Part shown: positions 3,061 to 54,090 of the stretch, in pieces
How the letters are laid out: each line of letters starts with the position of its first letter
Position numbering within the stretch: position 1 is the stretch's first letter
DNA from: Amoebophrya sp. A120
Taxonomy: Eukaryota > Protista > Dinoflagellata
Assembly (NCBI GenBank): GCA_905178155.1
Contig: CAJINV010000004.1
Span: forward strand, 3,505,320-3,569,319
Length of the DNA stretch: 64,000 nt
Direction: 5' to 3'
Notes under the pieces: model-generated
What the model saw: only the letters and a program-made list of their open reading frames with translations
Told to the model about the DNA's origin: nothing
Database searches by the model: none
Position numbers and translations under genes: made by a program

Positions 3061-3630
3061 TTCTGAGGTGAAAAGATAATACAAATTTTCAAACACGGCC
3101 TACTTCGAAAACATTCACTCTTTCCCGGGTGGCAGAGACAGAGAGCACGGAATCATAAATGAAAATTGCTTTACATCATGTTGCAACGCCGAAACAAAAA
3201 TGCATGTTAGAAGGACCAAGATAGTTCATCTGATTGAGTTTTTTCTAAAAGCAAAAAGTTGAGGATCTATTCACGGAGTCGTCGACGTCGCTCCTCACAA
3301 TACTAAAAGATGAAACAGAATAAAACCTTTCAACGTTGTGTATCACCTCCCGCCTGTGCATGGATCTTTAGATGCACTACAACCGGACTCAGACAGTGGT
3401 GAGACTTGATGCTCAGCAGGGACACATCATGATAATCTTGGATCGTTTTTCCGGCCTAAGAAAGTAATAATATTAAACGTATGTCAGTAGTAATGAAGAC
3501 TGTATCACCACGAGAGGAGAAAAACATGCGATATTGATCGTGGGGATCAGGATCAGGGAACTAGAGTCCAGCTCCCGTTTTTTCCTGCTCATCTCCGAAA
3601 ACCGCGACGAGGCCGCGGTGGAGCAGCGTC

Positions 3631-3727
3631 CTTCAAAAAAAGAAAAGCTCTGGATGAAAGAAAAAGTCCAAGGTCGTCATGGGACAACAAACTACTCTGA
3701 GTCTGTGCTATCCGAGTCAAAATCTTA
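3631..3727. repeat. Intergenic repeat of about 90 bp; second copy near 7413-7499
   Basis: CCTTCAAAAAAAGAAAAGCTCTGGATGAAAGAAAAAGTCC...TCGTCATGG.ACAACA...TGTGCTATC.GA.TCAAAATCTT occurs in both places. Confidence 0.85.
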
Positions 3728-3755: not shown

Positions 3756-6700
3756 TTAGAAACCGCCCGGAGGTTCTTGTGAAAGCCACAGCATGTCCGT
3801 TGTGAAGTCGCCACAATTCTTGTCCGTATCAAAGTAATTATCAAATGTAAAAATGTCTGGGTCTGGAAACTTGTGATGCAAAAAGTGGATGATAGCCGGA
3901 CTGCAATACGCAGCTATGCATCACAAACTTTTTGGCTGCCATGTCTTACGTATTCCGCATGGCAAGCTGCGTTTTTGCATGACAGGTAAGAGGGTCTTTT
4001 CGTGCCTATGCAACACAGATTCGCGAATCATGCCAGACAAGCATGACAAACATGAATTCTTCCAGACCCAGACATTTTTGCATTTCATAGTAATGCCCGC
4101 ATTGCGATTGATTCGCCCGCCACGACAAGTGCCGAAACGTATCAACTGCAAAAATGTCTGGGTCTGGAAGGATGTAACCTGTGATGCGCATTTCAGAACA
4201 CACGAAAATCTCTCATGCATAGGTAGCAAAAGCTACTCACTTTCTGTCACCAAAATGGGGGATTTGTCATGCGGGTTCGGCATTGCGAAAGCTTCTCGAG
4301 ACCTGTGATGCTAGAGCTTCCATGCCAGACCTTCTGTGTCATGCAGAAACAGCATGACTCTTCCAGACCCAGACACTTTTACAGTTGCTAAAACGACACT
4401 CTAAGCAAAACGTCGAGGGGTGTCAGCGGCGGGTTCCATGACGCACCTTGCCCATGCCGGGCTACCTTCAGAAGAACGGGCCAGAAGGGTAGCGCTTGCA
4501 CAGTGAGCATGGCAAGAATTTCGGCCGAAAACACGAGCCGCGGAAGAATCAGGCTCGCCGATTGCGGAACCAAACGAACGTCTTCGAGATAGGCCGAAGC
4601 GTGCGGACGGTCTTCGGCTGAACGGTCCTCAGCGTGTCGATATTGCAATTTGCACGCAATGCTTAGGGCAAGGAATAGTAGCGAAAAGGCCCACCCGAGA
4701 AAGATCCCTATCACTCGGCCCAAGTAATAGCCACGATAGGCCTGCGCCCAGGCACTCCGATGAAACTCGCTTTTGCATCGGACCGAGGCTTATCAAATGT
4801 AAAAATGTCTGGGTCTGGAAGATTGTCATGCACGGTTTGCATCACGTGTGAGGTCTGTGATGCATGCCCCAGCATCACAGATTCTGTGAGATCTTTACCA
4901 TGCCTTTTCCGCATGAGAAACTGCCTCTCGGCCTTCTCAAAAGTGAACAGCTTTATTGGTAATCATTCGTTCGTTCGTATGGATCGGCTCTGCCGACCGG
5001 GTGACCCATCGCCTTGCATATAAATGACCGACATAGGCGATCCCCGTTACGGGACATACATATGGCCGTACGGAAGGGCCCTAAGCGCTACATACATAGT
5101 TCATCCTAGCGCCTACCACTTCGGTCGGGACTGAGTCAGCCTGGTCCTGGGGGTTCACAGCGCACTAGCCCTCTGCTAGCATAAACAGACTGGGTTCTAC
5201 AAACTGATCTAACTTCTCATAACAGTGAGGCCATCAATCATGCAACACAGATTTTTGTATGATTCAGATTTAGCATGACAAGTTGTACTCTTCCAGACCC
5301 AGACATTTTTGCATTTGATAAGACTCGCTGATCGGAAACATTCACGAAAAAAAGGTCCGTCGGCTCGTCCAACGGATCCGAGGACACCCCAAACAGTACG
5401 CCGGAAATGTCGAGAGGCTCGTGGAACAACTGCCGCGTTTCAAAAATTAACCGCAGCAAGACTGCGGCCGCAACAGTTTGATGCAGCGCCTGCGACCATA
5501 TCCGAGTATCGTCCTCGTGGATCGTCGTTACACGATTTCGGGTGGCGCTGTTTCCTGAACCTGCTGCTTTTGTTCCTGCCGTCGTCGTCGGAGCTGCGTT
5601 CGGGGCCTTCGCCCTGAAAGTGTTCTGCGGCACCGCAGCCGTGATGATCATGATGACAGGCGGAAGGATCAGCCAAACGACACGAAGTGCCAGATCGATA
5701 GATCGCTCGGTGTTTATGCTGTCCAGGTCATTATCCGCTACGGTTGTAAAGCCCGAACAGGTGCGATCGTACAAGATCAGTGTGTAGTGCGAGAGCAGTG
5801 CACAAATTTCGGCTATCACCAGACCTGTGGTGAAAATCTTGCCCTCCGTGCTGTCCCCTCGCTGACATACACTTGACAAAGTTCCTCTCCTGGCGAAATC
5901 CCAGGGAAGCAGCCAGTACTTTTCCGGCTTCGCCGGCGGTGGATTCGGGCGGTCGGCCGAAAGAGTGTCTGCTTGGTCACCACCTGCCACGACGGTTGCC
6001 CCCTGCTGTGGTTCCGGAGTGACATGATCCCCGCCGCCCTCCGGCTCTACTACCTCCTCCTGGCTGTATTCCCTGGGAAAAAAGACCAAGCGAACCGGCA
6101 GCGCGACGACAATGAGCGAAGCCGCGAACCCGGAAAGGAGGTACACCACAGCGCGAACGTAATCCACCCACCACACAGCAAACCTCTGCGCCAAAAGCAG
6201 TCCACTAGCCTCCTCCACGACCGCCCCGGCGTGGCGAATGTCTGTGGTCGCGTTCACAAGGTCGGTCACGTTGTTGGTGCAGGCGGTGGCGTTCGTCTCG
6301 AGCATTGCAATCTTCTGCTGCATCTCCGCCCGGAGCGTTGAAATCTTCTGCTGTGTCTCCGCCTCGCGCATTGCCATCTCCTGCTGCATCTGGAAAATTT
6401 GCTGCTCCATCGGAAGTTGTCGCAAGTCCTCCTTCTGCCCTCCCATGGCAGTGGCATCTTCCGCGGGCCTGCTTCTCTTTTTTGCTGCGGCATATCCTCC
6501 AATCTGAAGCCACTCCTGCTGCTTGTGGTCCACAAATTCTCTACCCAGATCTTCGATGTCGTTTTCGCCGGTGGGGGAGATAGAGGGAGTTCTCGTCTGT
6601 TGGCGTTCCTGTCGCTCCTCGTTCGTCCCGACCCGCGTAGCCGACAACCCTCCAAACGCATACTGTACTGCAGCATTGCTCTGCAGAAACTCTTCCGCTG

Positions 6701-7043: not shown

Positions 7044-7883
7044 GAGATGTGCGGGCAGGGAGCGCAGCCGCGGTCACTTCAAGAGTTGTAGTGGCAAAAA
7101 ATATGACATCAATTCTGCCACAAATGCCCGCGATGACGACAGAGGCTTGCTGTTCGTGGCTCTACATATAGAAAAGGAATAAAGCACGACAAAAGTACAC
7201 TGATATCCTCGACTGTGAAAGTAGTTCGCGACCGAGCGACTTGTCATCAAAGTTACATCTGTACAACTTGAGAATACGGTATGGAGATCAAGATCCAGAC
7301 CGCCTCAAAAATGGCAAATGATAATGAAGCAGTAGATCGCGAGAGGAAATAAAACTCGCTTCTGGACGCCTAGATCTTCATGTTCGACCTCGCAAGTTCG
7401 GGATGAAAGCATCCTTCAAAAAAAAGAAAAGCTCTGGATGAAAGAAAAAGTCCCACATCGTCATGGCACAACAGTATGTGCTATCAGAATCAAAATCTTG
7501 TATATCTGTTCCTCGAACATCAAGTGGTCTATAATTGGTATTTGTGACGAGTAACACGCAGCTGTATCATATGAGCGCAGACCGGAGGCATGGTGTTGTT
7601 CATGCACGAAACTCCAGTTCAAACACAGTCACAGATCAATAAAAAAAGCACCCCGATATGAAAAGATCAGGAAATGCGTCATCTCAAGATGCGGAAAATT
7701 GCTCGCAAGTTGTGGTCGTTCTCACTTTTGAAACAAATCCGTGTCGCGAAATCGTTGCTTTTTCATCTTCCTCTCGACTTCTCAACAACAATAGTCACTG
7801 ACCCGCCAGACGTCGAGCCAGCCATAAAATTGATGCTGATTTTTCTTTGTGCTCCGAAAGGACATTGCTTGGTTTTTGCCTCT

Positions 7884-10247
7884 ATCAAACCACCTGCATG
7901 AAGCTTCGCCCGCCGGCATTCCCGCCCCCGGCAGCTCCCTGTCCCGCAACGAACTATTACAATGCAAAATGCCCCCACCCCCGAACTTGGGAGCATTTGT
8001 ATTGCAAACCTTTCCAAATGAAACACTCGCCCTCTTGCATCTATCAGCATCACAGGTTTTCAATCGTGAATAGCAAAAATTTGCATTGCAAAAGACCCCA
8101 GCAAGAGCGGCACTTGCCATGCAAGCTATGCGATACACGCCTACACTCTGCATCAGAAAGATTCATACTCCTTTCCTGCATGACAAAAAGTTTTCATTTG
8201 GAAACTTCGCATCACAAATTTTTGCAATTTAGGGATGGGGGGCACTTTTCACTGTAATACGAACTGCGCATGCTTCCGAGGTTTTCGCCGCAAAATTGCC
8301 GCGTCCTCCATTATATCAAGTGCAAAAATGTCTGGGTCTGGAAATTTGTGATGCTAAAATGTGCAGGATGAAAACACTTCCTCACGCAGGAAAGCATGAC
8401 AAGTCTGCGCAACGCTTTATCATACGAACTCCGCATGAGAAACTGCGTTTTTGTATCATGACGTGAGAGGCTGCCACTTTTGTTGGTCATGCAATACAGA
8501 TTTCACAGGAATGCAAGACCAGCATTACAAGTTCCAACCATCCGGACCCAGACATTTTTGCATTTGATACCACATCTCCACCTGGTAGGGCGGGTCGCGG
8601 TACTCCCTCCCGGTTCCCTTATGGAAGCGTCAGGATTGAAATCGTCAAAGTTGAAATAATTTCTCATGCAGGAATTGCAAGGCATGCAGTGCCTCTCTTG
8701 CAGGGATGGCAAGTGAGGCCGCCTGTCAGCCTGTTTGGGGTCTGCGAGAGAGCTGCTAAAGTAGCACGACAAAAGACGCCTTCTGTCTCTAAACAGCATG
8801 ACAAACTGGATTTAGACGGTCCCGAAATTTGTCATGCGCCGCTTGGAAATTGGGCTTCTAACTGGTATCGATTTTATGCATTACAAATGATTTCAACTTT
8901 GTCGATTTCGATCCTGACACTCCCATATCCCTCGAGAGGATCGTATATCGTGCGAAAAAACTGTTTCACTGCAAGGTAAGCACACTTTCGACGCAAGGGT
9001 TTGCATCACAAATATGTTTCTTCAGCATGACAAAGGAGATCCGCCATGCGTACTTTGTATTAAGGTACTACCGACTACACAGCTAGAAACCCAAACCCAA
9101 CAATGTCTCGCATGATGTGTGACACGGAAATAAACACTTCTGCGTAGTTGTTGCACTTTCTGCATCACAAGCTACAGTTTACAGGCAAACAGCTTTTTCT
9201 CGCGGTATCGTACCGTCGCGGTTCAATATTCGAAGACCAGCCCGCGAGTCATATCCTGTGTAAAAATGTCCCCATCCACCTCTATTTGTCACGCAAATCT
9301 GCACGCCCAAAAAAAAAAGTTTCTCACGCGCAGCCACAACATGCGAGGCGGTTTCTCCTAATGCTTGTTTCTGGGTGGAGTTCTTTCTAATGCTACAATC
9401 AGGTGGCTGAGCTCCTCGATTTCTACTCATGCGCCCGCACAACTAGCTAAACACGATTAATAACGCACACAGTGCGAGCCCAGAGAACTTCTCATGCGCA
9501 ACAGCCAACACTTCTTGACTTGTGTACGTGGAATTGCCATCTTGTCTATGAGTAGTTGGGGACGTTATTTTTACTCAGGAGGATAAACGAGTAGGGAATC
9601 GTGGCCAATCGTCGGTCGGCAACGATTTCGACCAACTGCGGAAGTTTCTGCTTCGTATGCATTGCAAATATGTCTGGCTCTGGATTAATTTGCGATGCGA
9701 AGCCTCCCTGCTGACCAAAAAAATCTGTATATGCAAGAGGCGGATTGGCGAGTCTTTTTGGCGTGCTAGAAGGCAGTTCCTCGTCATGCGAGTTTTCATG
9801 AACGAATCTGCAAAATCGAGGCTTGCAAATTTTCGTTGTCATGCGACGTTCATCAGTCTGTACACCCGGCCCCCGCTCGCATGCAGGGCTCTGCAGCACA
9901 ATTTCGGACCATCTTTCCAGACCCAGATCGATATTTGCATTTGATACTTTACCCGGCCAGACCATCGTACGGAAAACCTTCACCCATGTCATATCAAATG
10001 TAAAAATGTCTGGGTCTGGAAGAATGCAAGTCTGTCATGCTTGTCTGGCATGACTGGAGAATCTGTGTTGCATAGGCACGCAAGAGTCCTCTTACCTGTC
10101 ATGCAAAAACGCAGTTTGCCATGCGGAATACGTAAGACATGGCAGCCGAATAATTTCTCATGCATAGCTGCGTATTGCAGTGCGTCTATCATGCACTTTT
10201 AGCATTACAAGTTTCCAGACCCAGACATTTTTGCAATCCATATGTCA
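7884..10247 (-). CDS. Probable further 3' exons of the calpain-like gene (or a separate small gene), split by 7 introners
   Basis: Short GC-rich segments between elements join as ...RRYDPLEGTGREYRDPPYQVE.MEDAAILRRKPRKHAQFVAGQGAAGGGNAGGRSFMQVV*. The frame across the 9656-9946 junction is unresolved. Confidence 0.5.
8946..9207. mobile_element. Introner family C (TIR TATCGYGCGAAAAAACTGTTT), TSD TCGTA
   Basis: Inverted ends with a 5-bp repeat; other copies at 190-401 and 2549-2794. Confidence 0.85.
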
Positions 10248-10469
10248 CTGCAAATGCTTAGTTGGTAAGTACTACCAGAGTTTCTACCGTAGTAGTGCCT
10301 ACCAAGCGCCGTAAGCGAAGCGCATTGAATGCAACCAAAAACAACTAAATATTGCGGCGTGCGGAACTACTTCCTTAGCCCATGCCCGACGTCCGCAGCA
10401 TTTCGTCTTGTTTCTGGATCTTGTTCTATGTCAATAAAACTTTGCTAGCTGCTTGCAGTTATTTTCAGT

Positions 10470-13400
10470 ACGATAGAGAAACTTCTTCGATCAACAGCGG
10501 CGACCCGATGGAGTAAAACCTTTGTGATTTCAGAAGTTTTTTGGCTACAGCTTCACCTCGTTCGTGTTCGTTGGGAGTTCCACGCGCCATTCGTATCAGG
10601 TTTAGCAAGGCCCTAGTACTCGCAAGAAATTTAGTAGACATGGCCAAAAAGTGAAACGAATATCACACAGCTCCTGTTACGGCGGAGGCTTGCTGCAGCT
10701 GCGGTAACAACGAAACAACTTTTTTTTTACGGTGTGCTGAGGTAGAAAATTCTGATAGACATCGTCCTCGAAACATTCGCTAAATGACAACTATACCTTG
10801 CCACGAGTCGAAAGGCGGGCGTGTCGCCGCAGACTGCAGCGGAGAGGTACAAAATGGTTGTGTCGGGCGTGGTATCAAATGTAAAAGTGTCTGGGTCTGG
10901 AAGAGGAGAAGTTTGTCATGCACATTTTCCATGCTCCATGATGTCTGTGACGTATGCCATAGCATCACAGATTTTTTGAGAGCCTATCGATGCACATCCT
11001 GCAAGACAAATGCCCTCTACGCGTAGCCAAATTTGACTCCTCTTGCTGCTCATGCAATACAGATCTTTTTAGCATCCAAATGCAGCATCACAAGTTTGGC
11101 TCATCCAGACCCAGACATTTTTCCATTTGATACGTGGTCTCGTCGGGTTTCACCTTCACCGCTAGCGCCGCGTCCCGGGTGTTATCCTGTGCAAAAGTAT
11201 CGCATTCGTATAAATGCAAGTCAAATCAGGATTACAAATTATTTCTCAAGCTGAGGAAATTTGTAATGCATTTATGCGAGTACGATACTTTAACTTTTGC
11301 AGTTCATAGGTGTGCCCCCAGTTTGACACCGTGACCAGGGACACGTCCACACTGCTTCCGTTGGCGGACGAGGCGGAGTGCAGGTTCAGCCCCATCTTAT
11401 CCTAAGGCAAAACGTCCTCACCCCATAGTTGTCATGCGAATCGGCATGCTTAAAATGTTTCTCATGCGGAGCCCGATGAAAAGCGCTTTCTCGTCGTGTT
11501 TGTAATGCTCGAAGTAGCATAAGACGCTCTATCTGCAATGCTATACGCGCTAGCTTCTGAACAGGACAACACTATGAGCCCAAATCTGTCACGCGCCACA
11601 GCCAAAACTCGTTGATTTGTCTATAGCAGATTTCTCATTTTGACTCGAGTGTGCGGACGTTTTTCCACACAATACATCTCCTCATACAGCTTCAGAAAAA
11701 TCGGGGAGTGGCAGTCCTTATCAAATGCAACTATGTCTGGGTCTGGAAGATTCAAGGAGTTTGTCATGCATCTTCTGGATCACGCAACTGGTCTCTAATG
11801 CACACAAAAGCATTACAGGTTTTGCGCAGGCCTCCTGATGTCTATCCCCCATGAGAAATTCCCTATTTGCGTAGCAAAACATGAGAAGCTTTTGGAGGTG
11901 CTTATGCAATACAAATTTTGCCTATTCCAGAAATCGCATGACAAGTTCCAATTCTTCCAGACCCAGACATTTTTGCATTTGATAGTCCTCGCTGCTCAGG
12001 TAGCCGCCTAGCCGATTTATCAGAATGAAAAATCCCCCCTCCCCATATCCAAAACGAAATTTGTGATGCTGTATTTGAGTACACAAATCGACTTGTAATG
12101 CTAGAAGGCCAAGAGACGCAGCTGTGGCCTCATTTGCAGGCAACTTGTCATGCTGTTTCCCCCTTCCAGCTGCCCCGTGTCATGCTGAAGATGCAAGGCT
12201 TTCCCACGCCAACCAGCACTACAGTCCGCATCTTTTCCCTTCTAGCATGACAAGGCTGATTTGTGGCCACAAATCCGCATCACATATTTCAAGTTTGAGT
12301 ATGGGATGGGGGGATTTTTCATTTTGATACGCTTATCGCTCTGGCCCACCCCGATGAAGATCTCGCACTCCTGCCGGGGCTTAGTGACCTCGATCTTGAA
12401 CACCGGCCAGTTCTCGCTCGTGACGAAGCTCGGGAAACACCAAATCTGTTCTTCCAGCTGCCTGGGCGGCGGGGAGGCCCCGTACGTTCTTGGAACGAGG
12501 GTCGGCGCCTTGCAAAAAATAATTTTACCGGAAAATTAAAATAAAAATTATTGAAAGCAAATGCGAAAAAATAACTTTTACCTTGCTCTCCGCTCTCCGC
12601 ATTAGTTTTAGTACGAAGGTAGAGTAGCGGCCGGACCAGAATTCAAGTGGAACAATAAACGCACTGAGTAAGTACCAGGTCAGAGCCTAACGCCTTCCAA
12701 GCGGGGATCCAGGTGCTCTTCTATCCTGTGTCAAGAAAACGTCCCCGCCAGCCAAGAGTTGTCATGCAAATTACCTGCAAGCCTAATCACTAAAACGTTC
12801 ATCAAGCGCAATCCCACCACGAGTAGCGTTTTCTGATGCTATCTGAGGGCTCTCTGTCGTGCTGGAAAAATCAGGACAAGATCATCGATCAGCGATGCGG
12901 CCTCCGCACCAGCCTGAACGCTGTCCGAAAACTCCTCGATACGATTGTGTTGCGAAATTCATCCTATCTCGACTCTGGGGCGGGGTCGTTTTTCCGCAGG
13001 ATACCTCCTATCCTGTGTAAAAACGTCCCCACCCCAGAGCTCTCATGCAATTCTGCACGCCAAAAAAGTTTCTCACGCGGGGCCCTATGAAAAGCGTTTT
13101 CTAGTCGTGTTTTGGAATTTGTAATGGTAGGACCAGCATGCTACGATAGATCTGTGATGCTGCTGACCTAGCTAAAACAGGATTACACTACGAGGACAAA
13201 CTTGTCATGCCAAACAACCACAGCGGGTTGATTTGTCTAGCAGATTTCCCATCTCGGCTCTGGGGGTGGTGTCGTTTTTCCTTACGATATCTCCAGGTCG
13301 GAGGTGTTTACCAGTCTACATTCGTGAATGGACCTAAACACCTGGTGGAACACCAAAATCTCCATATCATTTGTAAAAACGTCCCCACCTCCCCAGAGTC

Positions 13401-16400
13401 TGTCAAGATGGGGATCTCGCAACACGAGTACAAAAGCTGTAGGAGTCAGCACGCATGACGAGTTTTTGCAGTCCGTACTGTACTAGTGCAGTTTAGCAAT
13501 GACAGCCAGCGCCACAAAGTCATCTACTTATCCTGGTTGCAGCATTACAAATTCCAAAACGCGATGCCTCTGATGCGCGACATGCGCATTACAAATCTTC
13601 CTGCCACTGCAAATCCGCATGACAACTCTGGGGTGGAGACGTTTTTGCTCACAATACTCCATCCACAGGTACCCATCCTTCGCCTGGTATGTGGTATCCT
13701 CTGCAAAAGTCTCGCACTCGTATTGCATTTATGCAATACAAATGCAAATCTCCTTCTTAAGGTTGAGCAGGCAAAAGCGCATTTAGAGCGGGGTAACAAA
13801 ATAAAAAAAGAGGTCCTCGGGGGACCTCTTGTCCCCCCGGCCGGGCGGACAAGAGGTCCCCCCGTTTTGCTGCCGGAGCGTCCGGCACGCGGAGTTCCCC
13901 CCCGTGTCGCCGCGTCGGATATTTCGGGCGAATCGGGGCAGGGACCTCTTGCCCCCCCCGTTGCGCAGAGAAATTGGCTATGTATTTGCTATACAGGACA
14001 AGAGGTCCCCACCGTTCGACCCGAAATGGCCGGCGCGGCGACCCGGGAGGGAGGGAACTCTACGAGCCGGCTGCTCTGGCAACAGAAGGGGGGGACCTCT
14101 TGTCTGTCCGGCCGGAGGGACAAGAGGTCCCCCGAGGACCTCTTTTTTTATTTTGTTACCCCGCTCTTACAAATTTTACTCTTTAATGCTGAGCCAATTC
14201 GTATTGCAATCTATACCAGCGCGATACTTTTGCAATCCGTATCTGGGATGGTCGGGCAACGCGGTGATTTCGTGCAGCACCTCGTTGAAGGGGCAGTTGA
14301 CAAAGAGGCACACGAGAAAATCCGTGGGCTTCGACCGCATCGGGGGTCGGGCGGTGGTTCTTCCGACGACGCCGGCCGCCGCCTGCTTCGTCTATCCTGT
14401 GTAAAAACGTCCCCACCTCCCCAGAGTTGTCATGCAAATGCGCAATGACAGGAACACTTGTAATGCGCATCTCCTTGAGAGGCATTTCCAGTCGTGTTTT
14501 GGAATTTGTAATTCTGTAAACAGGATGAGCAAATGGCTTTGTCCTGCGGCCTTCCTTGCTAACCAGCACTACACTGCAGATGGAAACTTGTCATACAGAA
14601 CTCCCAAAACTTGGAGATTTGTGTTGCAGATTTCCCATCTTGACTATGGTGTGGGGACGTTTTTACGTAGGATATCGACGACGAGATCTTGAGCGTGTCC
14701 ACCACGACATACGCCCACTCTGGGTCCAGCTTGAGACGCAAACTGCCCGCCTTCTCCTGGTCTAGCTTGGCGACAAAGAGGCGCCTATCCTAAGTAAAAA
14801 CGTCCCCGCCCCAGAGTTGTTATGCAAATGCGCAATGTTGACAGGAACATTTGTAATGCGCATCTCCATGAAAGGCATTTCCAATTGTGTTTTGGACTTT
14901 GTCATGCTGTAAACAGGATATGAGGCTGGCTTTCTCATGCTGCTGCCCTTGCTAAACAGCCGTACACTACAGATGGAAACTTGTCATGCAAAACTCCCAA
15001 AACTTGAAGATTTGCGTTGCAGATTTTCCAACTTGACTATGGGGTGGGGACGTTTTTACACAGAATAGCACTGGCGCAAGGAAAACTCCAGGTACGCGAA
15101 CAGGCGGTCGGCGGCCACGTCGTGCACGTAGAAGCGGGACCCGAGACCCCCCGTCAAATCCTCCAGCGCCTCCTCGATGTTCCCGCCCTTGCCCATCGCT
15201 AAGAAGGAGTTGTGGAGTTTCGCGTACGCCTTCTCTATCAAGGAGCTCCACTATGGGAGTGCACGACTCCCCCTGCTGCTCTCCCTCATACTCATGTGTA
15301 TTAATGCAGAATACCAAGTACACTAGAACTAGATCCTGCACTTGGGCACCAGTATCTGCATGCCAAATTTTGAAACCTCAAACAGCACGTACAATTATCC
15401 GTTTGCAGATTTTTTGCCGTGCGGAAGTAGCCACATAGCTGTCGTTGCTTGTGTTGCTGCTCTTGCCATAGTACAAATGAGGTGGACGAGAGGGGAGTTG
15501 TGAACTGTCATATCCAGGCGAACTGGGGAAAGTGCTCGCTGCGGCAGCCGAGTGGGATAAAGCCCGATTCGTGCTGGGGCAGGTAGTCGTCGACGATGAC
15601 GGACACCCAGTTGGCGTGCTTGTAGAGGCGAAACTGGTAAAAGCCCTTCGCGACACACGATAGCAGCCCCTGCTGCCCGTCCTGCATAAAAACGTCGTAC
15701 ACCAGGTGGGGTCGGGTGCTCAGCGCGTTCAAGGCGTCGATGAAGTAGCCGTTGGTAATGTTGCCCTGAAACACCTTCCCGAGATTCAGGTACAATATCC
15801 TAAGTAAAAACGTCCCCACCCCAGAGTTGTAATGCAAATGCGCAATGACAGGAACACTTGTAACGCGCATCCCCATGAGAGGCATTTCCAATCGTGATTT
15901 GGCATTTGTAATGCTGTAAACAGGATGAGAAACTGGCTTTCTTATGCGGCTCTCCTTGCTAAGCACCACTATACTACAGACGGACACTTGTCATGCACAA
16001 CTCCCAAAGCTTGGCGACTTGTGTTGCAGATTTACCAACTTGACTATGGGGTGGGGACGTTTTTGCTAAGGATATACAAGGCCGAGACCTTTTCCCGGTC
16101 CGGCACCTTCGGCGGGGCGATCAGGGCGCCCTTTTGTCAAGTGCAAAAGTGTCTGGATCTGGAAGGGTGTAAACTTGTCATGCAGATTTTCCATGACCCA
16201 TGAGGTCTGGAATGCGGGACTTAGCATGACAGAGTCTGCAAAGTTTCTGCCATGCGTATCCTGCATGAGAAACTCCCTCCCAACTTGCTCGAAAGTGGAC
16301 AGCTTTTGGCACTCATGCAACACAGATTTTTGTATGCTTCAGATTTACCATGACAAGTTACCACCTTCCAGACCCAGACATATTTGCAATGCATACCTTT

Positions 16401-18983
16401 GCCTGGGCCGCGAAGGCCTGGGTAGCGGCCGGAACGCTGGCCTGGTTCGGCCCGCCGAACTGGTCCTGCTGCTGCTGCGTATCCCTTAGAAAAAGACAGG
16501 CAAACCAACTTTGTAATGCGCAAATAAACACACAAAAAGCTCTGCACGGCATATCCTAAACAGCACGCGACGGGCCCCCGCATGACAGACTGCTCTGTTA
16601 GTTTATTTTTGCATTACAAGTATGCCCTGCCTGTCTTTTTCTATGGGATAGTGTAGCTGCGCCGCGTAGAAAGCGGTAAGCGTGTTCATGTTCTGGCCCA
16701 GCGCCGGGAGGACCTCCATCGGCAGGAACGCGCCCTATCAAAAGGAAAAAAAATCGCCGCTCCCCATATCGAAATGGAAATCTGTGATGCAGGATTGGTG
16801 TGCACACATCGGATTTGTCTTGCAGTAGAGGACTGCAGACAGATACAAAGACGGAGCAGGGGCGTTTCGGTGTAGGCGCCTAGCAAGGCAGACACATCCT
16901 CCGTAGGCCATACAGCATCACAAATTGCCCGCAGAGCGCGGCGGGGTTTTTGGATTTGCCTCCTTACGAATACAGAGGCGCTTTGTGGTCTCAAATCAGC
17001 ATCACAAATTTTTCAAAGTATCCCGCTTTGGTATAGGGAGGGGGACTTTTTCCTCACAATACGCCCTCCCCGTTAACCTCGCCGTTCCTATTACAATGAA
17101 AAACGCCCCCACCCCGGAATTTGCAGAAGTTTGTCATGCAAAGTTTCCAAATGAAAGCTTTTTGTCTTGCCTGAAAGGATTGCGAGCCCTTCTGATGCAG
17201 AATCTAGGTGCGCAAGGTGCCTTGCGCATAACAGATCCGGCTGCTGTTGGGCCCCTTCGCAACACAACTTCGAGCTATTCAGCAGGGAAAATTTGTGATG
17301 CTGAGATATGCAAGACGGGAAATGTTTCTATTGGAAAGGTTTGCAATACAAATGCTGCCAAGTGTGGGGTGGGGGCATTTTTCATTGTAATAGTTCCAGC
17401 GGGAAAGCCGCAGCCACCCAGCCGGCCCCTTCGTGATGGCGTCCAGCTCCTCAGCGCTCACGCCGCCCTCCATCACCGACATCAGGTCCTCGGGCTCGCC
17501 CCTATGCATTGCAAATATGTCTGGGTCTGGAAGGTTGCAACTTGTGATGCTGCATTTGGATACTACAAAAATCTGTATTGCGTGAACAGCAAAAGAGGCC
17601 CAGTTTGTTGCTACACGGCGAGAGGGCATTTTTCATGCGGTATAGGCATAAGGAAACCACCCTCACAAAATCTGTGATGCTACGGCATGCATCACAGACG
17701 TCAGGAGTCACGCAAACTGTGCATGACAAACCTTGCATCCTTCCAGACCCAGACATATTTGCATTTGATAGCCGCCCACCCACCACGATACCGAGTGCGC
17801 CGGGAACTATGCAAGCGCACAACCCTTTTCTCGCCCTCGTCCTTTGCACAATTTATAATTAGCCTCGCCTGACGGGTCATGCAGCTTCCACATGATAGAC
17901 CCACGCCCGGACAATTGTACGTGTGGTTTCTTTGAGCCGCATCCGGAACTTGTCATGCAAACGCGGCAAAAAAGTCTACCTCTACGCAGGACTTCGCATT
18001 TTGCATCACAAATGAACGGGACGAAGAGTTGTGCAGTCTCGTAGGAACTCGCCGGGCGACACGAAGGTGCCGTCGTCGCGGTACATCTTCTGGTCGATGT
18101 ATTCAAGAAAAAAACACCATCACAATCTTCACTTTTGCACATTTTTGCAATACAAAGATTTTTGTCATGCGCAAAAATGCATCACAATCAAGATTTATAG
18201 GCGATTTCCCTTTGTGTTTTTGCAATACAAGAAAAATTTGTAATGCAAGACAAATTTCTGACGCAAAGCCTCCTAAATGTGATTGTGATGGTGATTTTTT
18301 CTTGGATACGATGGCGCCAAGCGCCAGCGCCTATGCACTGCAAATATCTCTGGGTCTGGAAGACACGACCTCCGAGTTTGTGGTGCGACGATTCCGAGAC
18401 GAGGACACAAAAATCTGTACTGACTAAGCGGCAAACAAATCAACCTGCGTTTGACCAAGCGAAGACGGTATTTCTCATGCAAGGTAGGCAATGAAGACCC
18501 TTGCTCTCAAAACTTGTGATGCTAGTACCGCCCGCATATTTATCTTCTGGGTCGACGTGCCAAAGAACCTGGATAGGCAAACTTTGCATTCTTCCAGACC
18601 CAGACATATTTCAGCATTTGATAGCGCCCCGGGCTGGTCCATGATGTCCGCGGCACCGGGGTCCAGCGCCGTGTCCGGGGTGAGCAAGGTCTTCATCAAG
18701 TTGCGGCACATATCCCAGAGAAGAAAGCTGGCACCGGGGGTAAATACACAGAAAAATTTGTCATGGGTGGCTCCATAGCATGCTATTTCGGATATGCTTG
18801 CGTATCTATTTTTGCATTACAAGTAAGTATGACCTGCCTGCTTTTTTCTGTGTGATAGTACAGCTCTCCCGCCGACTCCCGCTCGTCGTAAAAGTCATTC
18901 TCGCCCTCGTACCACTTCTGCGCCTCCTCTTCGCCCGCAATGCTGCCGCGGAACCCGCTCGGACGCGGTTCGCGGGAGGACAT
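10470..18983 (-). CDS. Calpain-like protein (CysPc domain plus domain III), catalytic residues degenerate; split by about 22 introners and a few GT-AG introns
   Basis: Spliced motifs: [96 protein letters not shown], then domain III-like [35 protein letters not shown]. Start taken at MSSREPRPS (ATG at 18983). Confidence 0.88.
13786..14166. mobile_element. PIF/Harbinger-type (Tourist-like) MITE nested inside introner 13695-14241
   Basis: A 50-bp perfect TIR (GAGCGGGGTAACAAAATAAAAAAAGAGGTCCTCGGGGGACCTCTTGTCCC), TTA on both sides, and six GGGACCTCTTGYC motifs in alternating orientation. Confidence 0.88.
17089..17392. mobile_element. Introner family E (TIR TATTACAATGAAAAAYGCCCCCACCCC), TSD GTTCC
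   Basis: Other copies: 7955-8259 (TSD CGAAC, opposite orientation), 21293-21570 (TSD CCCGA), 22347-22659, 23187-23488. Confidence 0.92.
18100..18308. mobile_element. Introner family I (TIR TATYCAAGAAAAAAWCACCATCACAATC), TSD CGATG
   Basis: Single copy with a 28-bp inverted repeat and a perfect 5-bp repeat. Removal joins LALGAI/DQKMY in frame. Confidence 0.88.
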
Positions 18984-42721: not shown

Positions 42722-45700
42722 TCACACCCGCAGGCTCTGCTCCGGGCGCATGGTGGCTGAGACCGAGCTCTGCGTCTGCCGAAAAACGCGGTCGTCGCCG
42801 TCAAGGGAGCAGGTCCAGTAGTTGTAAACGCTGGAGACGGCGGAACAGTATGACAGTGCACAACTCCCCCTCCCCTTCACTTGTCTAACATGAACGGCAA
42901 TACAAGCATCAGCAAGAGTGCCGGCTTTGCATGACAGATTTGCACTGGAGTATAGTGCTATTTGAGCTGCCAGAACTTGTCACGCACACAGTGCCAAGAG
43001 GCAAAGGGTGGATTGGGTATTTTGCATGACAAATGAGGGGGAGGGGAAGTTGTGCACTGTCATAAACAGGGGGTCAAGTCCTGAAACAGAAAACACATCC
43101 CCTTCACGTTTCCGCTGTACAACGGCAAAAGTCGTACAGTAGCAGGAGGAGTACTCCTCGTAGTAATTACATCAATCTTGCATCATGACAAATGTCCTTT
43201 TGGACCTTGCTCAGCATTACAACTTGCCTTTTCTACATTCATTCACAATCACCACTAGCACGAGACTTTTGCAATGCGTACCCACTGTACCGCTGCACCA
43301 CGTGGGGGTTCCGCTCCGGATTCAGGTACTCGAAGGCCGGTATGGAGTTGTCAACCGTTTTGACGCTGTCAGCTGTTGCACGAAAGCGTGATGCACGAAT
43401 AGCAAATGCGAAAGGAGGGAGTTTGCGCGTCTTGCATTACAGGTTTCTTGTCGTCGAATCTACGCTGTTTTTTTGGCGCGTCGAGAACTTCTTGTGACGC
43501 GAAGCAGCTCGATCGCGTGGAGAGTCAGGGTGGTAGTGATTCTGCATGACAGATCATGTGACAGCTCCTGAGAAGGTAACGGTTGAGAACAACTCCATAG
43601 CCGTCAGATCCGCCTTTCATTTTGGAGATTGCGTACTTTTCAAAAAATTCTACGATATTGATCTAGAAATCCGCAGTCACGATCAGGGTGGAATCGCAAG
43701 CAAAAGGACACAGCAGCAAGACGATGAAAAAAGTTTAAGTTTATATCACAGTAATATTTTTTACCAGCATGAGCGCCACGTGTCTCCCGAGCAGCAATGC
43801 GACGAAGCCCAGCAGTCCCAGGTTGCACTATGCACTGCAAACATGTCTGGGTCTTGAAGAACGCAATATCTGTCATGCACATTTGGCATAACCCATCATG
43901 TCTGTGATGTATGCTCTAGCATCACAGATTTTTTGATCATGCCTGTCCCGCATCAGAAATGCCCTCTCCGCGCTGCAACGAGTGAACTCCTCTTGCTGAT
44001 CATGCAATACAGATTGTCTTAGAATCCAGAGGCACCGTCACAAGCTCTTGCACTCTTCCAGACATCCAGGGATTATATGTGCAATGCATATGCACACTGC
44101 GCTTGCGAGTAAGCAGATCTTTCCCACAACGCCGGTTTCGAAGAAGAACGCCACGTCGCCGCTGGTGTTTTCGATTTCAGTCAGCAGGTAATCGAAGAAC
44201 AAGGAAAACCACCACAATGTCAGCGTGAACGCAGACAGGAGGAAGAGAAAAAAACTGCGCTGGTTGCCGAGCCCGATCGCGTTGTCGACCCAGGGACAAT
44301 GGTGGTCAAACCGTTCGACGACGCGGCACTTCTCTTTCCAGAACTTCGATCTCTGCGTCAGGAGGCAGCGACAGGTGACGTTCAGGTTCTGAAAGTTCCC
44401 CGACAACACTTTCTGCAGGTACAGTGTGCCGTTTAACGCTGCGGCGGGCGAAGATACGCGGGCTGTTGTAGTGGCGGGAACAACATCTTCCGGCGCACTG
44501 CTGAGACTGCTTATTTCTTTTCCACTCCGGGTTTCATGATCTCCCGCCGGCGTCGTCAATTCGAGCACGCTGTCAACACGAAAAAGACTGCTGTGTCCGG
44601 CAACAGGGGTTGCAGTGGAGGGGAAAACATTTTTGCCACTGCTAGATGATGGCGCTTCTTCAAAAAGGTGGACACACAAGCGCACGACTTAGCGCAGCAG
44701 TGCACGACTTAAGCAGCGCACTACCTAACAAACGTCGCACTACCTAACAAAGTGCGCAGCAGCGCACTATCTAACAAAAGCGCACTACCTAACAAAAGCG
44801 CACTACCTAACAAAAGCGCACTACCTAACAAAAGCGCACTACCTAACAAAAGCGCGCTACCTAACAAATGTCGGTGCACTACTTATAGCGAACGTTTAGC
44901 GGTTGCTTCTGCGCTAACGACTGCTTAAGTCGTGCGCACTACTTAACGCAGCAAAGTCGCGCACGGCATCTCGAGCGTAGCGCACGACTTACCGCAACGG
45001 AAAGGCTGGGCGTGGCCGCAGGGCACCCGTAAGGGTGTCGCGCATGATGACTTTAGAAGTGGAGACACGCACAACTTCAGCAAAAATCCTGGTCGCAAAG
45101 CGCTCCCGCAGCGAGGTACCTACGTCGTTGCAGCACGTGCACGAAGAGCGCTGGCGCTGAGACATGACAAACTCTACTTCCGTCTCTGTTTATTGAGAAG
45201 TTCCTGTTAACAATACCGAAGCCGAACACAAAGCTGCTTTTCGCTTCGGTACAGCAGCCGACGCAACTTCCCCACGTCCGCCGAAATCGCGAAAATCCGG
45301 TCGTTCAGCGTTTCCAGGTCCTTCGCAAAGACCGTATGTGCAATTTCACTGTCGCTGTAGTTCGTTTCTTGCGTCAGGGTTCTCTGCTCCTGGCGCACGT
45401 GCGCGGGCAAATAAACGTGGGACACGTCCTTCGGCAAGAGAAGCTGTCGCTGGAAGTTGAACTGGTGCAGGTCCCGCTCGAGCTCGTACAAATCCTCCAA
45501 CGCACCGAGGACATCATCCACGGTGATTTTCCGTCGCCGTTCGTCCGGGAAGTTATGCAATACAAATTTCCCGTACATGTACAAGATGCATCACAAATTC
45601 TACCAATTTGGAGCGTAAAACTTGTCATGCTAAACCAGGAGCGAAGCCAAGCTTTGTCATGTTGGGAAACTAAGGGCAGGGCGTCCCTTTTGTAAATCGA

Positions 45701-48700
45701 AACTACAAACTTTAAACCACCTACCCGGTAAACTCTAAAGCAGAAAAATTGAACAGCGCGATTTCTACCGAGAGACAGCAACAGAAACTCCTGGGACGGC
45801 TGCGACGTGAGTTCTGTTGTTATCTGAGTAGAAATAGCACTGTGCAACAGTCGTGCCTTAGCACCGAGGGAACCGAAAAAATAAAAAGGTGTGAAGAAGC
45901 TAACTATGACACAGTCCCACCTACCCAAAGAACCATCCTAGAGGTGGTATCTCGAATTTCTAGCATGAAGGAACTGATTGGTTTGGGAAATGGGGTTGCG
46001 ATCGTGGCGCCAACATCCAAATCCAGACCAACATGCAAATGGCCCGATGAGCCACGAGGTTGGTGTGTCCAGCATGACAAACACGACGTCAAAGATAAAT
46101 AGTGCCACGAGACCGGAGTAGTTCATGACCAAACCGAGGAATTGCATGACAAATTTTGGCCGAGCTGTAACAAATTCGAGAACCAGGATGGAAATAGTGT
46201 ACTTAACCTGCGTAGTGGTCGCGTACTAAGAACCCCTAGGAAGAAAGTAAATATCAATGAAGGTTAGGTATTATAGTAATGCAGAGACCGCATTTGTATG
46301 CAGAGACCAAGCTTTGTCATGCAGAGACCGCATTTGTACGTGTACAGGAAATTATTTACTGTGGATAGAAATGAAGCAGATCGTACAGCTGCTGCTGCTT
46401 CAATCGCTTGATACTCCAGTTTTTGCTGCTCGATGCCGCCGCGCTGGGCGCGGTCCCGCGCACGTCGCAGGTCACCCGGTGCTCCACGCTCTCGATCAGA
46501 ATGCTCTGCTGCCGCTTCGAAGGCGTTTTCTTGTTCGCCACCGTGTGATCACTCGAATCGATCGGTGCCGAGTCCTATGCATTGCAAAAGCATATGTAAT
46601 AGTGCAACAATTCTTGCATGATACAAATGGATTCCAAAGCAAAATCATACTTCTCATGCAGAGTTAGGTCGTGAAGTAGCAGATCTGTCATGCAAGACTT
46701 CTGCAATTAGGAAAAGTTACTTCCTACACATATTGCTTTTGCACAGGATATATTCTTGCTATTGTTCGCCGATGAAACGTTGCCTGGGGTGTCGTTTGCC
46801 GCGGTGGTAGACGCCATTTCCATCAGATCCAAATCGATCAAGTCGGGCCGCTCGTATCCACAGTAAATTTTCCGTACACCTACAGGTGCGGTCTCTGCAT
46901 GACAAGACTTGGCTTCGATTCTAGTTTAGCATGACAAGTTTTACGCTCCAAATTTGTGAAATTTGTGGTGCATGTTGTCCATGTACGGGAAATTTGTATT
47001 GCATAGCTCGTTCTCGTCTGCAACGAAGATGCTCGTCGCGGCGGTCGGGTACAGGGCGTACAGGTCCTCGCGATACTTTGCAATCTCGCTGTTAAGCCTC
47101 CTTGGTTGTACTGTCGGTGACGACGTCGAGTTTACACCTTGTTGTAGCTCCACCGTTGGACGATTATCGACTCCAGCAAGATGAGCAGCGCCGTCGATTA
47201 TATCGCCCCCGCTACTGTCGATCAGCGGTGTGTAAAAGAACTTTTGCTCGCGCGCGTTGGTAATACCCCCCGCAGTAGAAGTAGACCCACTGGCACTACC
47301 TCCATGCAACGGCCCCAGACCGCAACTGCTGTCCTGCAGGGCGCGGAGACAGTTCCGCGTGGCGTTTGGCCGCCGCTTCTTGCTCGCGGGCCTGCGCTTG
47401 CGAAAGGCGGCCACGTGGGTCATCTGGGACCCGATCACCTGGTCCGCGTCAAACGTTTCGGCGTGGTCAAAAATCCGCTGCGCCTGGCTCAGAATGGTGT
47501 TGGGCGCGAGACACCCCGGGTCCGTTTGCCAGCACAGCAGCCAGAGTTTCACCGTGAGGGCGTAGTAAACCAGCCAGAGCACTACGTTGGTGATGCCAAA
47601 AGAATCTTCGAAAAGACTATAACTCGTGAAGAAAGCTCCACTTCCGTTGCCCACCGGGTTTTCAATATCGCCAGGCGAGGAAGACGAGGGTGGTGCTCCA
47701 CCTGTGCTCTCCGGAGGTAGGTGTGCTGTCCCGGTTGTAGTGCCGACCGCCACGGCGATCCTACTGGGCAGTATAACCCCGAGAACGACCACCAAATTGA
47801 CGAAGAACACCGCGGCGACGCGCCACGCGAAGTCGTCCTGGAAGATGTGGGGGTGGCCGCAGACACGGTAAAAGCATTTTGCGACGAAAAAGTTCCAGCA
47901 CAGGGACCAATTACTACTGCGGTACGCGATCTGCATCGGCGTGTCACCGCACCCGTCGGGCTCGTCGATGAGAAAGTGGCCTGTGCTGTTCGGTGGAAAA
48001 ACGCACCCAGGACAACGTATACGTAGCTAACGGCGGCGGGAGTGGTTGTGCTATGAAATAACTAGAGATTCACTTTTAAAAACTCTATTCCGAATGCCAA
48101 GGCTCGACACGTTGTTATATGCAGAGTTGTGCGCGGATGGCGCAGTCGCATCACAAACCCGGTTTGATATCCTGATTTTGTTCGGGCATGTTGACCACCA
48201 CAAATCTACTTCCTCAGAAACCGATCCACCGTGCGTGCATGGGCGAGAAATAACCGGCGCTCGTACGTGAGACCATAACGAACTACTTCTCGGCATGCAT
48301 CGAATCGAAACGCGCACAAAGCCAGCTCTGAAAGCGATGGGTACGTTTTTCCACTTAGGATATCCGACTGCCAGGAGCCAGTCCACCACGGGCCTTGCCG
48401 CCATCCAGACCTCGGTGGCGTCCTTCCTCGCCGCCCAGTGCAGCGCCGTGAGGCCCTCGTGGTCGCGGTGAGCCACCGAGGCGGCCCGGGACAGCAGATA
48501 CGTCACCGTTTTGCAGTGTCCGCGCGCACAGGCGTACTGCAGGGCGGTGCGGCCCAGGTTGTCCTGCTCCTCCACCGAAGCACCGGTCTGCAGGTACAAG
48601 TACTCCAAAAGTTCCACGGCGTCCTCCTGCGCCGCGACCAAGAACACCGACATGCCCTCCTTGTCGCGCATGGTGAAATATCCTGTGCAAAAGTATCTCT

Positions 48701-49456: not shown

Positions 49457-50307
49457 CGTGCCAACGTGCTGGGATTTATCGGTTGCGTGTCGCTACTAGC
49501 GAAGGTGGCGGCCGCCCGGCGCAACAAGCGGATTTATTTTCTTAGGTGCGCAAAGATCGACGCATGCGCGCTGCCGTGGTGCTCCGCTGTAGCTGCCTCG
49601 TGCGTTGTTGCAAAAACACGTTCAAAACATACACAGGAAACAAGTTCCTATCTGCACGGTCACAAGAAGATTCGACATACGATGTTGCACGAGGAGAGAA
49701 GCGACCAAATTGTACGGAGAAAGCTGTGAAGTAAGTACTTGTTGTCGACGTTTTATTCTGGGGTACATTTTACGACGGGGAACAACACGACACGTGGACA
49801 ACAACGTCCTTCCGCCGCGCGCGGATTCACGAGTACCAGAGTGAAGAAGATTGCAACCAACTTCTTACCCTGAAATTATATCACAGCACTTGTACTTGGA
49901 AACCGCGAACACAGCTGCTACGTCTACAGCAATCGAGCGCATCAACATGTTAGCATCAGCACGTGAGAGCAAGCTCAAGCACAGCACAGCACGGCACCGC
50001 TGACTTCAAAGTCGTTTGTTTCTTTTCGTCTCCAACATGGGCTCAAGAGAAGTCAAAGTTCTGTGCATCCGCATTTTACACCAGTACCCTGGCGAACTAC
50101 CAAAACACTTGCGTCGTCAACAGAGGGCTAGTATACCACATAGAGGTACTGCCATCGACCTATGAGTTCTTCACGAAAAATTTTCGCACCGTCGAGTGAA
50201 CAAAAATATCGCCATGAAAATTTTTGTTCAGAAAGAAATTTCGCTTTACATCTCCATATAGACAAATCATCATTATACATCAAGCGCCGCCCTTGCGTTA
50301 AAGTACA

Positions 50308-50673
50308 TCAGCTACACGGTTCCCAATGACGGTTGTCGGCGCCTCGCACCGCGTTCGGGTCCGGTTCGGCGGAAGGCATCGCGGGGGAAAAGTAGTTCGC
50401 CGCGGGCCACTTGCACTCGCCCGTGTACCGATTGAAAAAGTAGTACACCCCGGGTCGGGATCGGCTTTCTACCTTTGTCCAGTATTTCTCGGGGTCCACC
50501 CGGTTCTGGCTTTTCAGTTCTTTCACGATCTTCACCTTGGGGCACTCCGCCTGGCGAATAGCCGCCCAGATGTAAGCATTCTTATCCTGCTCCAGGGTCA
50601 CCAGCGCGTAGGAGTTCGGGTCCCCCCCGGTGGGCGACGCAGGATCGACGCTGAGCTCGTTGCTGGTGGACAT
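50308..50673 (-). CDS. Small WW-domain protein, intronless
   Basis: WTKVESRSRPGVYYFFNRYTGECKW matches the WW pattern (W-x-YY/F-N-x-T-x-W) and resembles the Pin1 WW domain. No PPIase domain follows. Confidence 0.75.
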   Translation of the reverse strand: MSTSNELSVDPASPTGGDPNSYALVTLEQDKNAYIWAAIRQAECPKVKIVKELKSQNRVDPEKYWTKVESRSRPGVYYFFNRYTGECKWPAANYFSPAMPSAEPDPNAVRGADNRHWEPCS

Positions 50674-50699
50674 CGTTCTGAACGGCTCCACGGGTGGAC

Positions 50700-53600: not shown

Positions 53601-54090
53601 CTGCTCTCATTCAGGCATTAAAGCCATCTAGTGCAGTGGATTTGTTTACAAGACGTCATAGCGAGCAACATATATAATTTGGAGTTCTGTGATGTTCCTA
53701 TTCTGTTATATCGTCGTGCTTTAAACGGGTCATTTGAGCGTGTCAAATTTGTCTTACTTGGTGAAGTCTGTGAGTCGCACGGTCTATGTAGTAGTGCCAT
53801 AACTGGTCCTGTCTGTGTGTCCTCATTTGCTCCTGCTGTGAGATGTGCTTCACTGCTTTATTGTCCACCGCATCGTGCAACTCATCAGCACGAGATCGTG
53901 GACCGCCACGCTTTCTGCATTTAGCTCACGTGAGTAAATATGTCGAGCCCCACCCCCAGTGAGCCCGCAGTACGTAGTTGGTCTTCCTCGTCAGTACTCC
54001 CCGTGGTTCTGCTTTTGATGTTGTAGCAACTGATTTGATTTCTAGGAGACCAGAACAATGTTGTCCCTTCCCCATTCCACCAGTTCACCT
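50700..54090. other. Divergent strand-switch region with GC-rich / AT-rich / GC-rich architecture
   Basis: All genes to the left are on the minus strand and both to the right are on the plus strand. A-tract core at about 51850-52680 and GC-rich arms at about 51200-51660 and 52840-53470. Confidence 0.75.

Follow-up and report, generated by a model that had tools for sequence, protein, structure and literature searches.

Transposon-like introner elements of Amoebophrya sp. A120 are removed from RNA in either orientation, likely in a single register that follows the transcript

The 64,000-nucleotide stretch of the dinoflagellate Amoebophrya sp. A120 analyzed here (contig CAJINV010000004.1, positions 3,505,320 to 3,569,319 of the forward strand; the whole stretch is referred to as the window, and positions are counted from its first letter) carries numerous short elements that start with TAT, end with ATA, are flanked by 5-bp direct repeats and interrupt protein-coding genes. 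These elements are introners of the class published for A120 (PMC7789003). They are removed from RNA in both orientations relative to the host gene, and the cut likely falls in one register that is polar to the transcript: read in transcript sense, it lies 1 nt upstream of TAT and 4 nt downstream of ATA. An altered (major) spliceosome is, in our assessment, the most likely agent of this removal, a judgement that we hold with about even confidence.

When three exons of the window were used as queries, proteins named Amoebophrya sp. A120 were returned with identities of 100%, 99% and 100%, and A25 orthologues were returned for two of the three. A120 introners are described as having inverted repeats of 8-20 nt (TAT first, then seven less constrained bases, then three or more A), direct repeats of 3-5 nt, a length of ~240-260 nt and repeated families (PMC7789003); 29,850 copies are reported for A120, with removal that is supported by RNA sequencing (RNA-seq) and does not use GT-AG (Farhat et al. 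2021, PMC7789003). The elements of the window match this account in their inverted ends, direct repeats, repeated families and RNA-supported non-GT-AG removal, and they lie in an A120-like host (exons 99-100% identical). One script found 72 such elements in the window, and a stricter symmetric finder recovered 63, as compared to 0 and 1 in two shuffled sequences; the count is thus above chance.

Statistics on larger numbers of elements were drawn from the window together with 142 loci obtained by a pattern scan (552 kb, overlapping) of a metagenome assembly; these loci hold the same families, with copies at most 95% identical to those of the window and no extended unique sequence in common. 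To assign the host strand, we used a codon model that had been trained on exons of the window, splicing being assumed for the metagenome loci, which have no RNA, and 356 of 363 confident calls matched the majority of their own locus. From 478 unique elements, a strand score below 5 removed 154 (leaving 324 for the end statistics) and a score below 3 removed 93 (leaving 385). TAT was present at 312/324 and 311/324 ends and A at positions 11-13 in 290-309 of 324 elements, a motif for which the finder selects; the duplication was perfect (5/5) in 361/478 elements as compared to 0.34% for random flanks, under a score that rewards the match. Being short (median 261 bp), bounded by terminal inverted repeats (TIRs), flanked by a duplication of fixed length, present in high copy and devoid of an open reading frame (ORF), the elements also have the properties of miniature inverted-repeat transposable elements. 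TIR elements with Copia/Gypsy-like ORFs have been mentioned for A120 (PMC12130899).

Removal of the elements was assessed with contigs from four RNA-like runs (X4-X7; one sample, RNA status guessed by a tool) laid on positions 11940-17860. This region showed 14 joints, all of which were present in X4, X6 and X7 and 11 of which were present in X5. Each of the 13 element joints skips an element plus 5 nt (in one case a tandem pair plus 5), while the fourteenth is a GT-AG intron (12508-12674); as this intron is missing from the same contigs, the joined contigs represent spliced RNA. A sequence-only reading of the window had proposed that two copies of family B, lying in opposite orientation within one calpain-family gene, are both removed, and this was borne out, as the copies at 13365-13656 and 14393-14674 were skipped as 297 nt (292+5) and 287 nt, respectively, in 4/4 runs. 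Removal of the E copy at 7955-8259 is indicated by the end of a contig piece and by the annotated protein, which runs across the site; for the K pair (45554-46367 and 46855-47005) it is indicated by the annotated protein alone. The joined exons of the 5' part of the calpain gene read through 648 codons without a stop and match the annotated protein P0001. The sequence-only reading had noted that removal of these copies restores the reading frame. The removed length is divisible by 3 in 4 of 6 named copies, so that for those copies frame restoration by itself is weak evidence. Exons between window positions 1 and 20000 were not covered in two raw-read RNA runs (X9 and X10). These runs do contain hundreds of reads that join element ends (2093-2128, 5238-5320) to foreign sequence, and none of the window exons; such reads may stem from another strain or from copies retained elsewhere.

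Among the contigs listed for the DNA-like run X1, some bridge retained elements at 15040-15825, 8901-9683 and 2096-3664 with depths of 45.5, 40.6 and 42.4, respectively, as compared to 43.1 for an element-free contig, i.e., the retained elements are found at single-copy depth. X1, a run of unspecified life stage, may be the source of the assembly, and contigs drop rare variants. Summed X1 depth reached 1e4-1e5 over element bins versus about 45-130 elsewhere.

Where the two 5-bp copies of a duplication differ, the cut can be placed, and we express its position as u, the number of bases of the upstream duplication that lie inside the intron in transcript sense. The register set comprised the 13 RNA joints and the element at 18711-18857, which was placed by the start of a contig piece and by record arithmetic. 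The register described above (u=1) fits all 14 junctions, as compared to 13 for u=0, 12 for u=2, 10 for u=3 and 6 for u=4, and all 8 informative RNA junctions (8/8) exclude the mirror register, u=4. In three annotated proteins, 30 of 32 junctions match; u=1 is allowed by 30/30 and u=4 is excluded by 7. As the same genome, together with its RNA-seq, gave rise to these protein models, their independence from the RNA joints is only partial. Homology to A25 independently requires u<=1 at 8314 and 9252, and u=0 is excluded at 46576-46750 by the annotated protein. Exclusion of u=4 was obtained in both orientations for family F (16480 and 18711, both from RNA), family A (17503 from RNA, 8314 from protein) and family C (13695 from RNA, 46576 from protein). 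Since reversed copies exclude u=4, the register follows transcription and not the orientation of the element. Duplications are perfect in the reversed B copy (13365-13656) and in the two E copies, which are uninformative in this respect. Moreover, T stands at position +2 in all nine predominant non-canonical A120 motifs of Table S4 (PMC7789003), as u=1 predicts, an agreement to which aligner bias may contribute. For A25, whose elements have TTA ends, the listed motifs start with TT.

The orientations reported by the sequence-only reading, as well as its coordinates, proved exact. Local alignment of element interiors (terminal 25 nt trimmed) scored 200 on the opposite versus 39 on the same strand for the B pair, 249 versus 65 for the E pair (7955-8259 and 17089-17392) and 122 versus 29 for the K pair. 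A single minus-strand gene (P0001, PF00648) hosts the copies of families B and E; those of family K interrupt an ankyrin-DHHC gene, also on the minus strand (P0003). At larger scale, with seven window elements missed by the finder added by hand, 289 of 331 elements clustered into 11 families; both orientations were present in 10/10 families with at least 4 members, and 111 of 287 elements had the minority orientation. Mild skews in orientation were seen in some families (18:6, p 0.023; 82:58, p 0.052).

The five 5-mers that had been quoted as lacking a consensus are real duplications (at 1276, 1965, 3839, 4140 and 18100; for 3839 and 4140 the call of the host strand is weak), and among the 324 strand-called elements the duplications indeed carry none, being near background at positions 1, 2 and 4 and mildly skewed at 3 and 5. 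The broader statement that removal has no splice-site consensus did not hold, as the element's own ends supply one once the register is fixed. In the u=1 register the intron reads N-TAT...ATA-NNNN, with T at +2 in 324/324, A at +3 in 322/324 and T at +4 in 314/324 elements. At terminal positions 1/2/3, 5' ends departed from TAT 0/2/12 times and 3' ends 9/6/3 times (n=385; permutation p 1e-4, and p 9e-4 with n=324). With strand derived from neighbours the numbers were 1/2/12 and 6/5/4 (p 0.019, n=354), and with perfect duplications only 0/2/10 and 4/5/3. The most constrained bases are thus U at +2 and the A that precedes the 3' cut by seven bases. As a transposase would constrain both ends alike, the unequal conservation suggests that the ends are read in RNA in a base-specific manner. 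Of the recognition by symmetric ends that had been inferred from sequence, one part is supported, in that removal is positioned by the inverted ends and ignores GT-AG (7/324 elements in this register); symmetry itself is not supported, as the cut is polar to the transcript and the ends are unequally conserved. A purine after the 3' cut is mildly enriched (206/324). An association between first and last intron bases (p 3e-4) was discarded as ordinary dinucleotide bias; 0 of 64 dinucleotide tests survived correction. No signal emerged when mismatches in imperfect duplications were examined for direction (drift of the intronic copy towards A/T).

Folding of 110 random elements (each <=330 nt) predicted a core stem from end to end in 102 in sense and 104 in antisense orientation, with no difference in folding energy between the two (p 0.42); the two B copies had z scores of -3.0 and -4.2. 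The stems showed no excess of G-U over A-C mismatches (229 vs 251), and the elements at 18711-18857 and 16135 are removed though no terminal stem is predicted for them. The sequence-only reading had proposed circles joined ATA-N5-TAT as a diagnostic product. The same junction occurs in the chromosome at 13001-13011, where two B introners stand in tandem (12722-13289), and it confounds that test. In the inferred register the exon between these two introners would measure 0 nt, and the pair may leave as one 573-nt intron or in two successive recursive steps.

If an altered spliceosome removes the elements, their inverted ends would present the same 5' and 3' signals to it whichever way the element lies; orientation independence thus does not exclude a spliceosome and calls for no symmetric machine, and the earlier argument from orientation against strand-asymmetric signals fails, with Polarella and Aureococcus as precedent. 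The N-UAU at the 5' end, in which the first base is free, would be used as the 5' splice site, the A that opens the terminal AUA (7 nt upstream of the 3' cut) would be the candidate branch point, the 3' cut would be placed by distance and not by AG, and the end-to-end hairpin may help to bring the ends together where U1 seems missing. A120 has U2, U4, U5, U6 and most spliceosomal proteins (PMC7789003). In Giardia, the 5' motif is reported as [G|C]TATGT, the start of which is matched by the A120 N-TAT, and branch point and 3' site are fused into one; this makes it plausible that a branch lies at -7 and that the 3' cut is measured from it. The elements do not conform to either ordinary intron type, as the GT/GC and AG dinucleotides of U2-type introns are missing, with only T at +2 kept, and positions +5 to +8 are variable as compared to the long fixed 5' motif of U12-type introns; minor small nuclear RNAs (snRNAs) are reported absent in A120 (PMC7789003).

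Several observations weigh against this reading. A single RNA junction (16480) and a single annotated protein (46576) set the lower bound of the register, and the RNA-like runs come, as stated above, from a single sample seen as contigs. The end-polarity signal comes mostly from metagenome loci, and in the strictest subset it is non-significant (n=196, p 0.20). G at +1 occurs in only 108/324 elements, AG at the 3' cut is not in excess (25/324, background 8%), and no enrichment of G-G or A-C terminal pairs is visible, which leaves the usual second-step chemistry without support. The A proposed as branch point is absent in 3/385 elements, and in 84/110 folds this A and the 5' U are predicted to be paired and would need unwinding. 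Finally, no U1 snRNA was detected for A120 (PMC7789003), and a geometric analogue in Euglena reportedly leaves circles and not lariats.

Somewhat less probable than the altered spliceosome is the broader proposition of a new kind of route that uses element ends only, i.e., a spliceosome that dispenses with G+1 and AG and measures from the branch A of the inverted repeat, or a non-spliceosomal mRNA nuclease/ligase. The latter enzyme, taken by itself as a rival and modelled on euglenid nonconventional introns, would read the end-to-end hairpin, cut 1 nt upstream and 4 nt downstream of the stem and join the exons, with polarity arising from its staggered geometry; we regard it as a serious contender, a shade below the broader proposition. 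It is essentially the hairpin-guided cut-and-ligate removal of the sequence-only reading, which stays a live rival given the stem predicted in most elements (and the z scores of the B copies). All four junction bases are free, as such an enzyme would allow, the 1/4 offset is similar to that of the Euglena code (N3CDG...CH'GN5-6|R), in which the 3' arm is 2-3 nt longer, the failure to detect U1 fits as well (PMC7789003), and RNase III-like and tRNA-splicing-like routes have been proposed for euglenozoan introns. On the other hand, the balance of G-U and A-C mismatches gives no hint of selection on RNA pairing, the commonest end variants (5' TAC, 3' ACA) break terminal pairs while those that would keep a wobble there are rarer, and two elements are removed without a predicted terminal stem. 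An invariant T at +2 is a hallmark of spliceosomal introns, yet an enzyme of this kind could also read bases. Self-splicing by the elements as ribozymes is the least credible of the explanations considered here; strong predicted structure would suit it, but no Rfam match was found in the window at gathering scores (0 matches), and the interiors vary from family to family and accommodate nested inserts as well as either orientation.

Precise excision from DNA in some life stage, followed by transcription of the emptied gene, had been the other proposal of the sequence-only reading. Ciliate internal eliminated sequences (IESs) are transposon-derived, have TA-related ends and are removed precisely from somatic DNA, leaving one repeat copy. 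The A120 elements resemble them in transposon anatomy, TA-starting ends and the single duplication copy left, and only one DNA-like run, with the limits given above, speaks to their fate in DNA. Unlike IESs, which are absent from the majority (somatic) DNA, the A120 elements stay in DNA, at single-copy depth in X1 (one run), and they are cut in a register that follows transcription and not the element; the joined contigs lack the GT-AG intron as well, and one low-depth contig is joined at 16480 yet retains part of the neighbouring element at 16736 (a contig only). Amoebophrya is not known to have a separate germline nucleus, and without one excision would mean permanent loss. Moreover, introns of this kind were validated by RNA-seq against the genome (Farhat et al., PMC7789003). 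The introners are thus removed at the RNA level, and DNA excision is unlikely, in our estimate very much so. A further possibility, improbable though less so than DNA excision, is that the same machinery cuts at positions that vary within the duplication from intron to intron and that the single register reflects the small sample. The fits of u=0 (13/14) and u=2 (12/14) would allow for this, and the legends of Figures 3 and S23 of PMC7789003 call the splice position variable (1-5 nt). However, u=1 is excluded by 0/14 RNA-backed and 0/30 protein-matched junctions, T is found at +2 in 9/9 listed A120 motifs, and alignment ambiguity inside the duplication would alone mimic variable sites.

The features of the window that bear on these analyses are listed in Table 1.

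Table 1. Host gene, introners and control intron in the window (u, registers allowed)
Feature	Position	Strand	Details
Host gene, calpain family (PF00648)	7766..18983	-	span of annotated protein P0001
Family B introner	13365..13656 (292 bp)		TAT...ATA; duplication 5/5; reversed relative to the gene's other B copies
Family B introner	14393..14674 (282 bp)		TAT...ATA; duplication 4/5; common orientation; u=0-3
Family C introner between these two B copies	13695..14241		5' end variant TAC; skipped as 552 nt; u<=1
Tandem family B introners	12722-13003 + 13009-13289		one 5-bp copy between; single joint skips 573 nt
Family B introner	14786..15067		duplication 3/5; u=0-2
Family B introner	15796..16074		perfect duplication
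Family F introner	16480..16650		duplication 2/5; u=1-3, sets lower bound of register
Family F introner	18711..18857		opposite to 16480; u=0-1; contig piece begins 18858; record arithmetic 524=524
Family E introner	17089..17392		skipped as 309 nt in 3/4 runs
Family E introner	7955..8259		opposite to 17089-17392; contig piece ends 7948 (expected left-most joint); annotated protein spans site
Family A introner	17503..17770		opposite to 8314-8569 and 16135-16395; u=0-3
Canonical GT-AG intron	12508..12674	-	167 nt, ends may shift by <=2; internal control for spliced RNA
Family K introner, ankyrin-DHHC gene	45554..46367		814 bp, longer than its K partner
Family C-type introner	46576..46750		opposite to 13695; u=1-3 from annotated protein
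Family K introner	46855..47005		opposite to 45554-46367

Some introners of the window are composite or enlarged. A near-palindromic insert of ~385 bp with different ends (about 13785-14167) is nested in the introner at 13695-14241 and is removed along with it, and the introners at 45554-46367 and 4791-5320 are larger by several hundred bases than others of their own families. A short motif of the CATGACA / TGTCATG type recurs, as judged by eye, in introner interiors across families. With regard to the host genes, Gly is found in both calpain-family proteins, P0001 and P0002 (window 15514-15789), at what we take to be the position of the calpain catalytic Cys, and these proteins are likely inactive as proteases. 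A short tandem repeat array occupies a non-coding stretch of the ankyrin-DHHC gene (44692-44868). The coding strand flips from minus to plus at about 50000-54000, with kinase, Plk4 polo-box and UCH domains encoded on the plus side.

This intron class was published in 2021, and introners in both orientations are as such not new; what is added here is a transcript-polar register that holds in either orientation, together with the difference in conservation between the two ends. The literature consulted, which consisted mainly of texts outside subscription journals and of text rather than figures, yielded no fixed register, orientation test or data on lariats or excision products for A120; supplementary Figures S19-S25 of PMC7789003 may already show the offset. 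A single transcript-polar register in both orientations turns the question of how the elements are removed into exact tests. The register rule also serves gene models: in the tail of P0001, where the annotation shifts the frame at an 18-bp exon (8928-8945), removal of element plus 5 nt repairs the reading frame and yields a tail that resembles the A25 orthologue. If the route by element ends only is true, a TAT-ended transposon would be a universal intron, removable without a scar from any site, frame and orientation in tens of thousands of places, which would explain how a transposon could flood coding sequence at little cost and would offer a sequence-independent intron for engineering.

Compared to the published account of A120 introners, the window elements differ in showing, in place of a variable splice position, one transcript-polar register in both orientations and unequal ends (PMC7789003). 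The TIR introners of Polarella glacialis and Aureococcus anophagefferens (bioRxiv 10.1101/2020.10.14.339549) are likewise inverted-repeat elements that form introns both ways and have duplications at their junctions; however, they use ordinary splice sites (GT/GC/GA...AG) supplied by the element or the duplication, whereas the A120 elements need neither G+1 nor AG. The nonconventional introns of euglenids (PMC12501133, PMC11282704) and of hemistasiid diplonemids (PMC12621601) share with the A120 elements the lack of GT-AG, paired ends (by prediction only in A120), direct repeats, a fixed offset and a longer 3' arm. Euglenid introns have their CAG/CTG core at +4 and at a distance of 5-6 nt from the end, as compared to TAT/ATA at +2 and -5 in A120, so that the window ends (N-TAT...ATA-N4) do not follow the euglenid code; moreover, euglenid introns belong to an unrelated lineage, are reported to leave circles and need a purine after the 3' cut, which in A120 is only mildly enriched. 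Fritillaria borealis (bioRxiv 10.1101/2025.08.15.670264, PMC11282704) also has transposon-derived non-GT-AG introns, the removal of which is attributed to a modified major spliceosome. These differ from the A120 elements in their preferred ends (AG-AC and AG-AT), in the presence of U1 and a duplicated U2AF, and in that about half of the intron termini can form G-G-like pairs. This precedent nevertheless indicates that a spliceosome can adapt to transposon introns without GT-AG.

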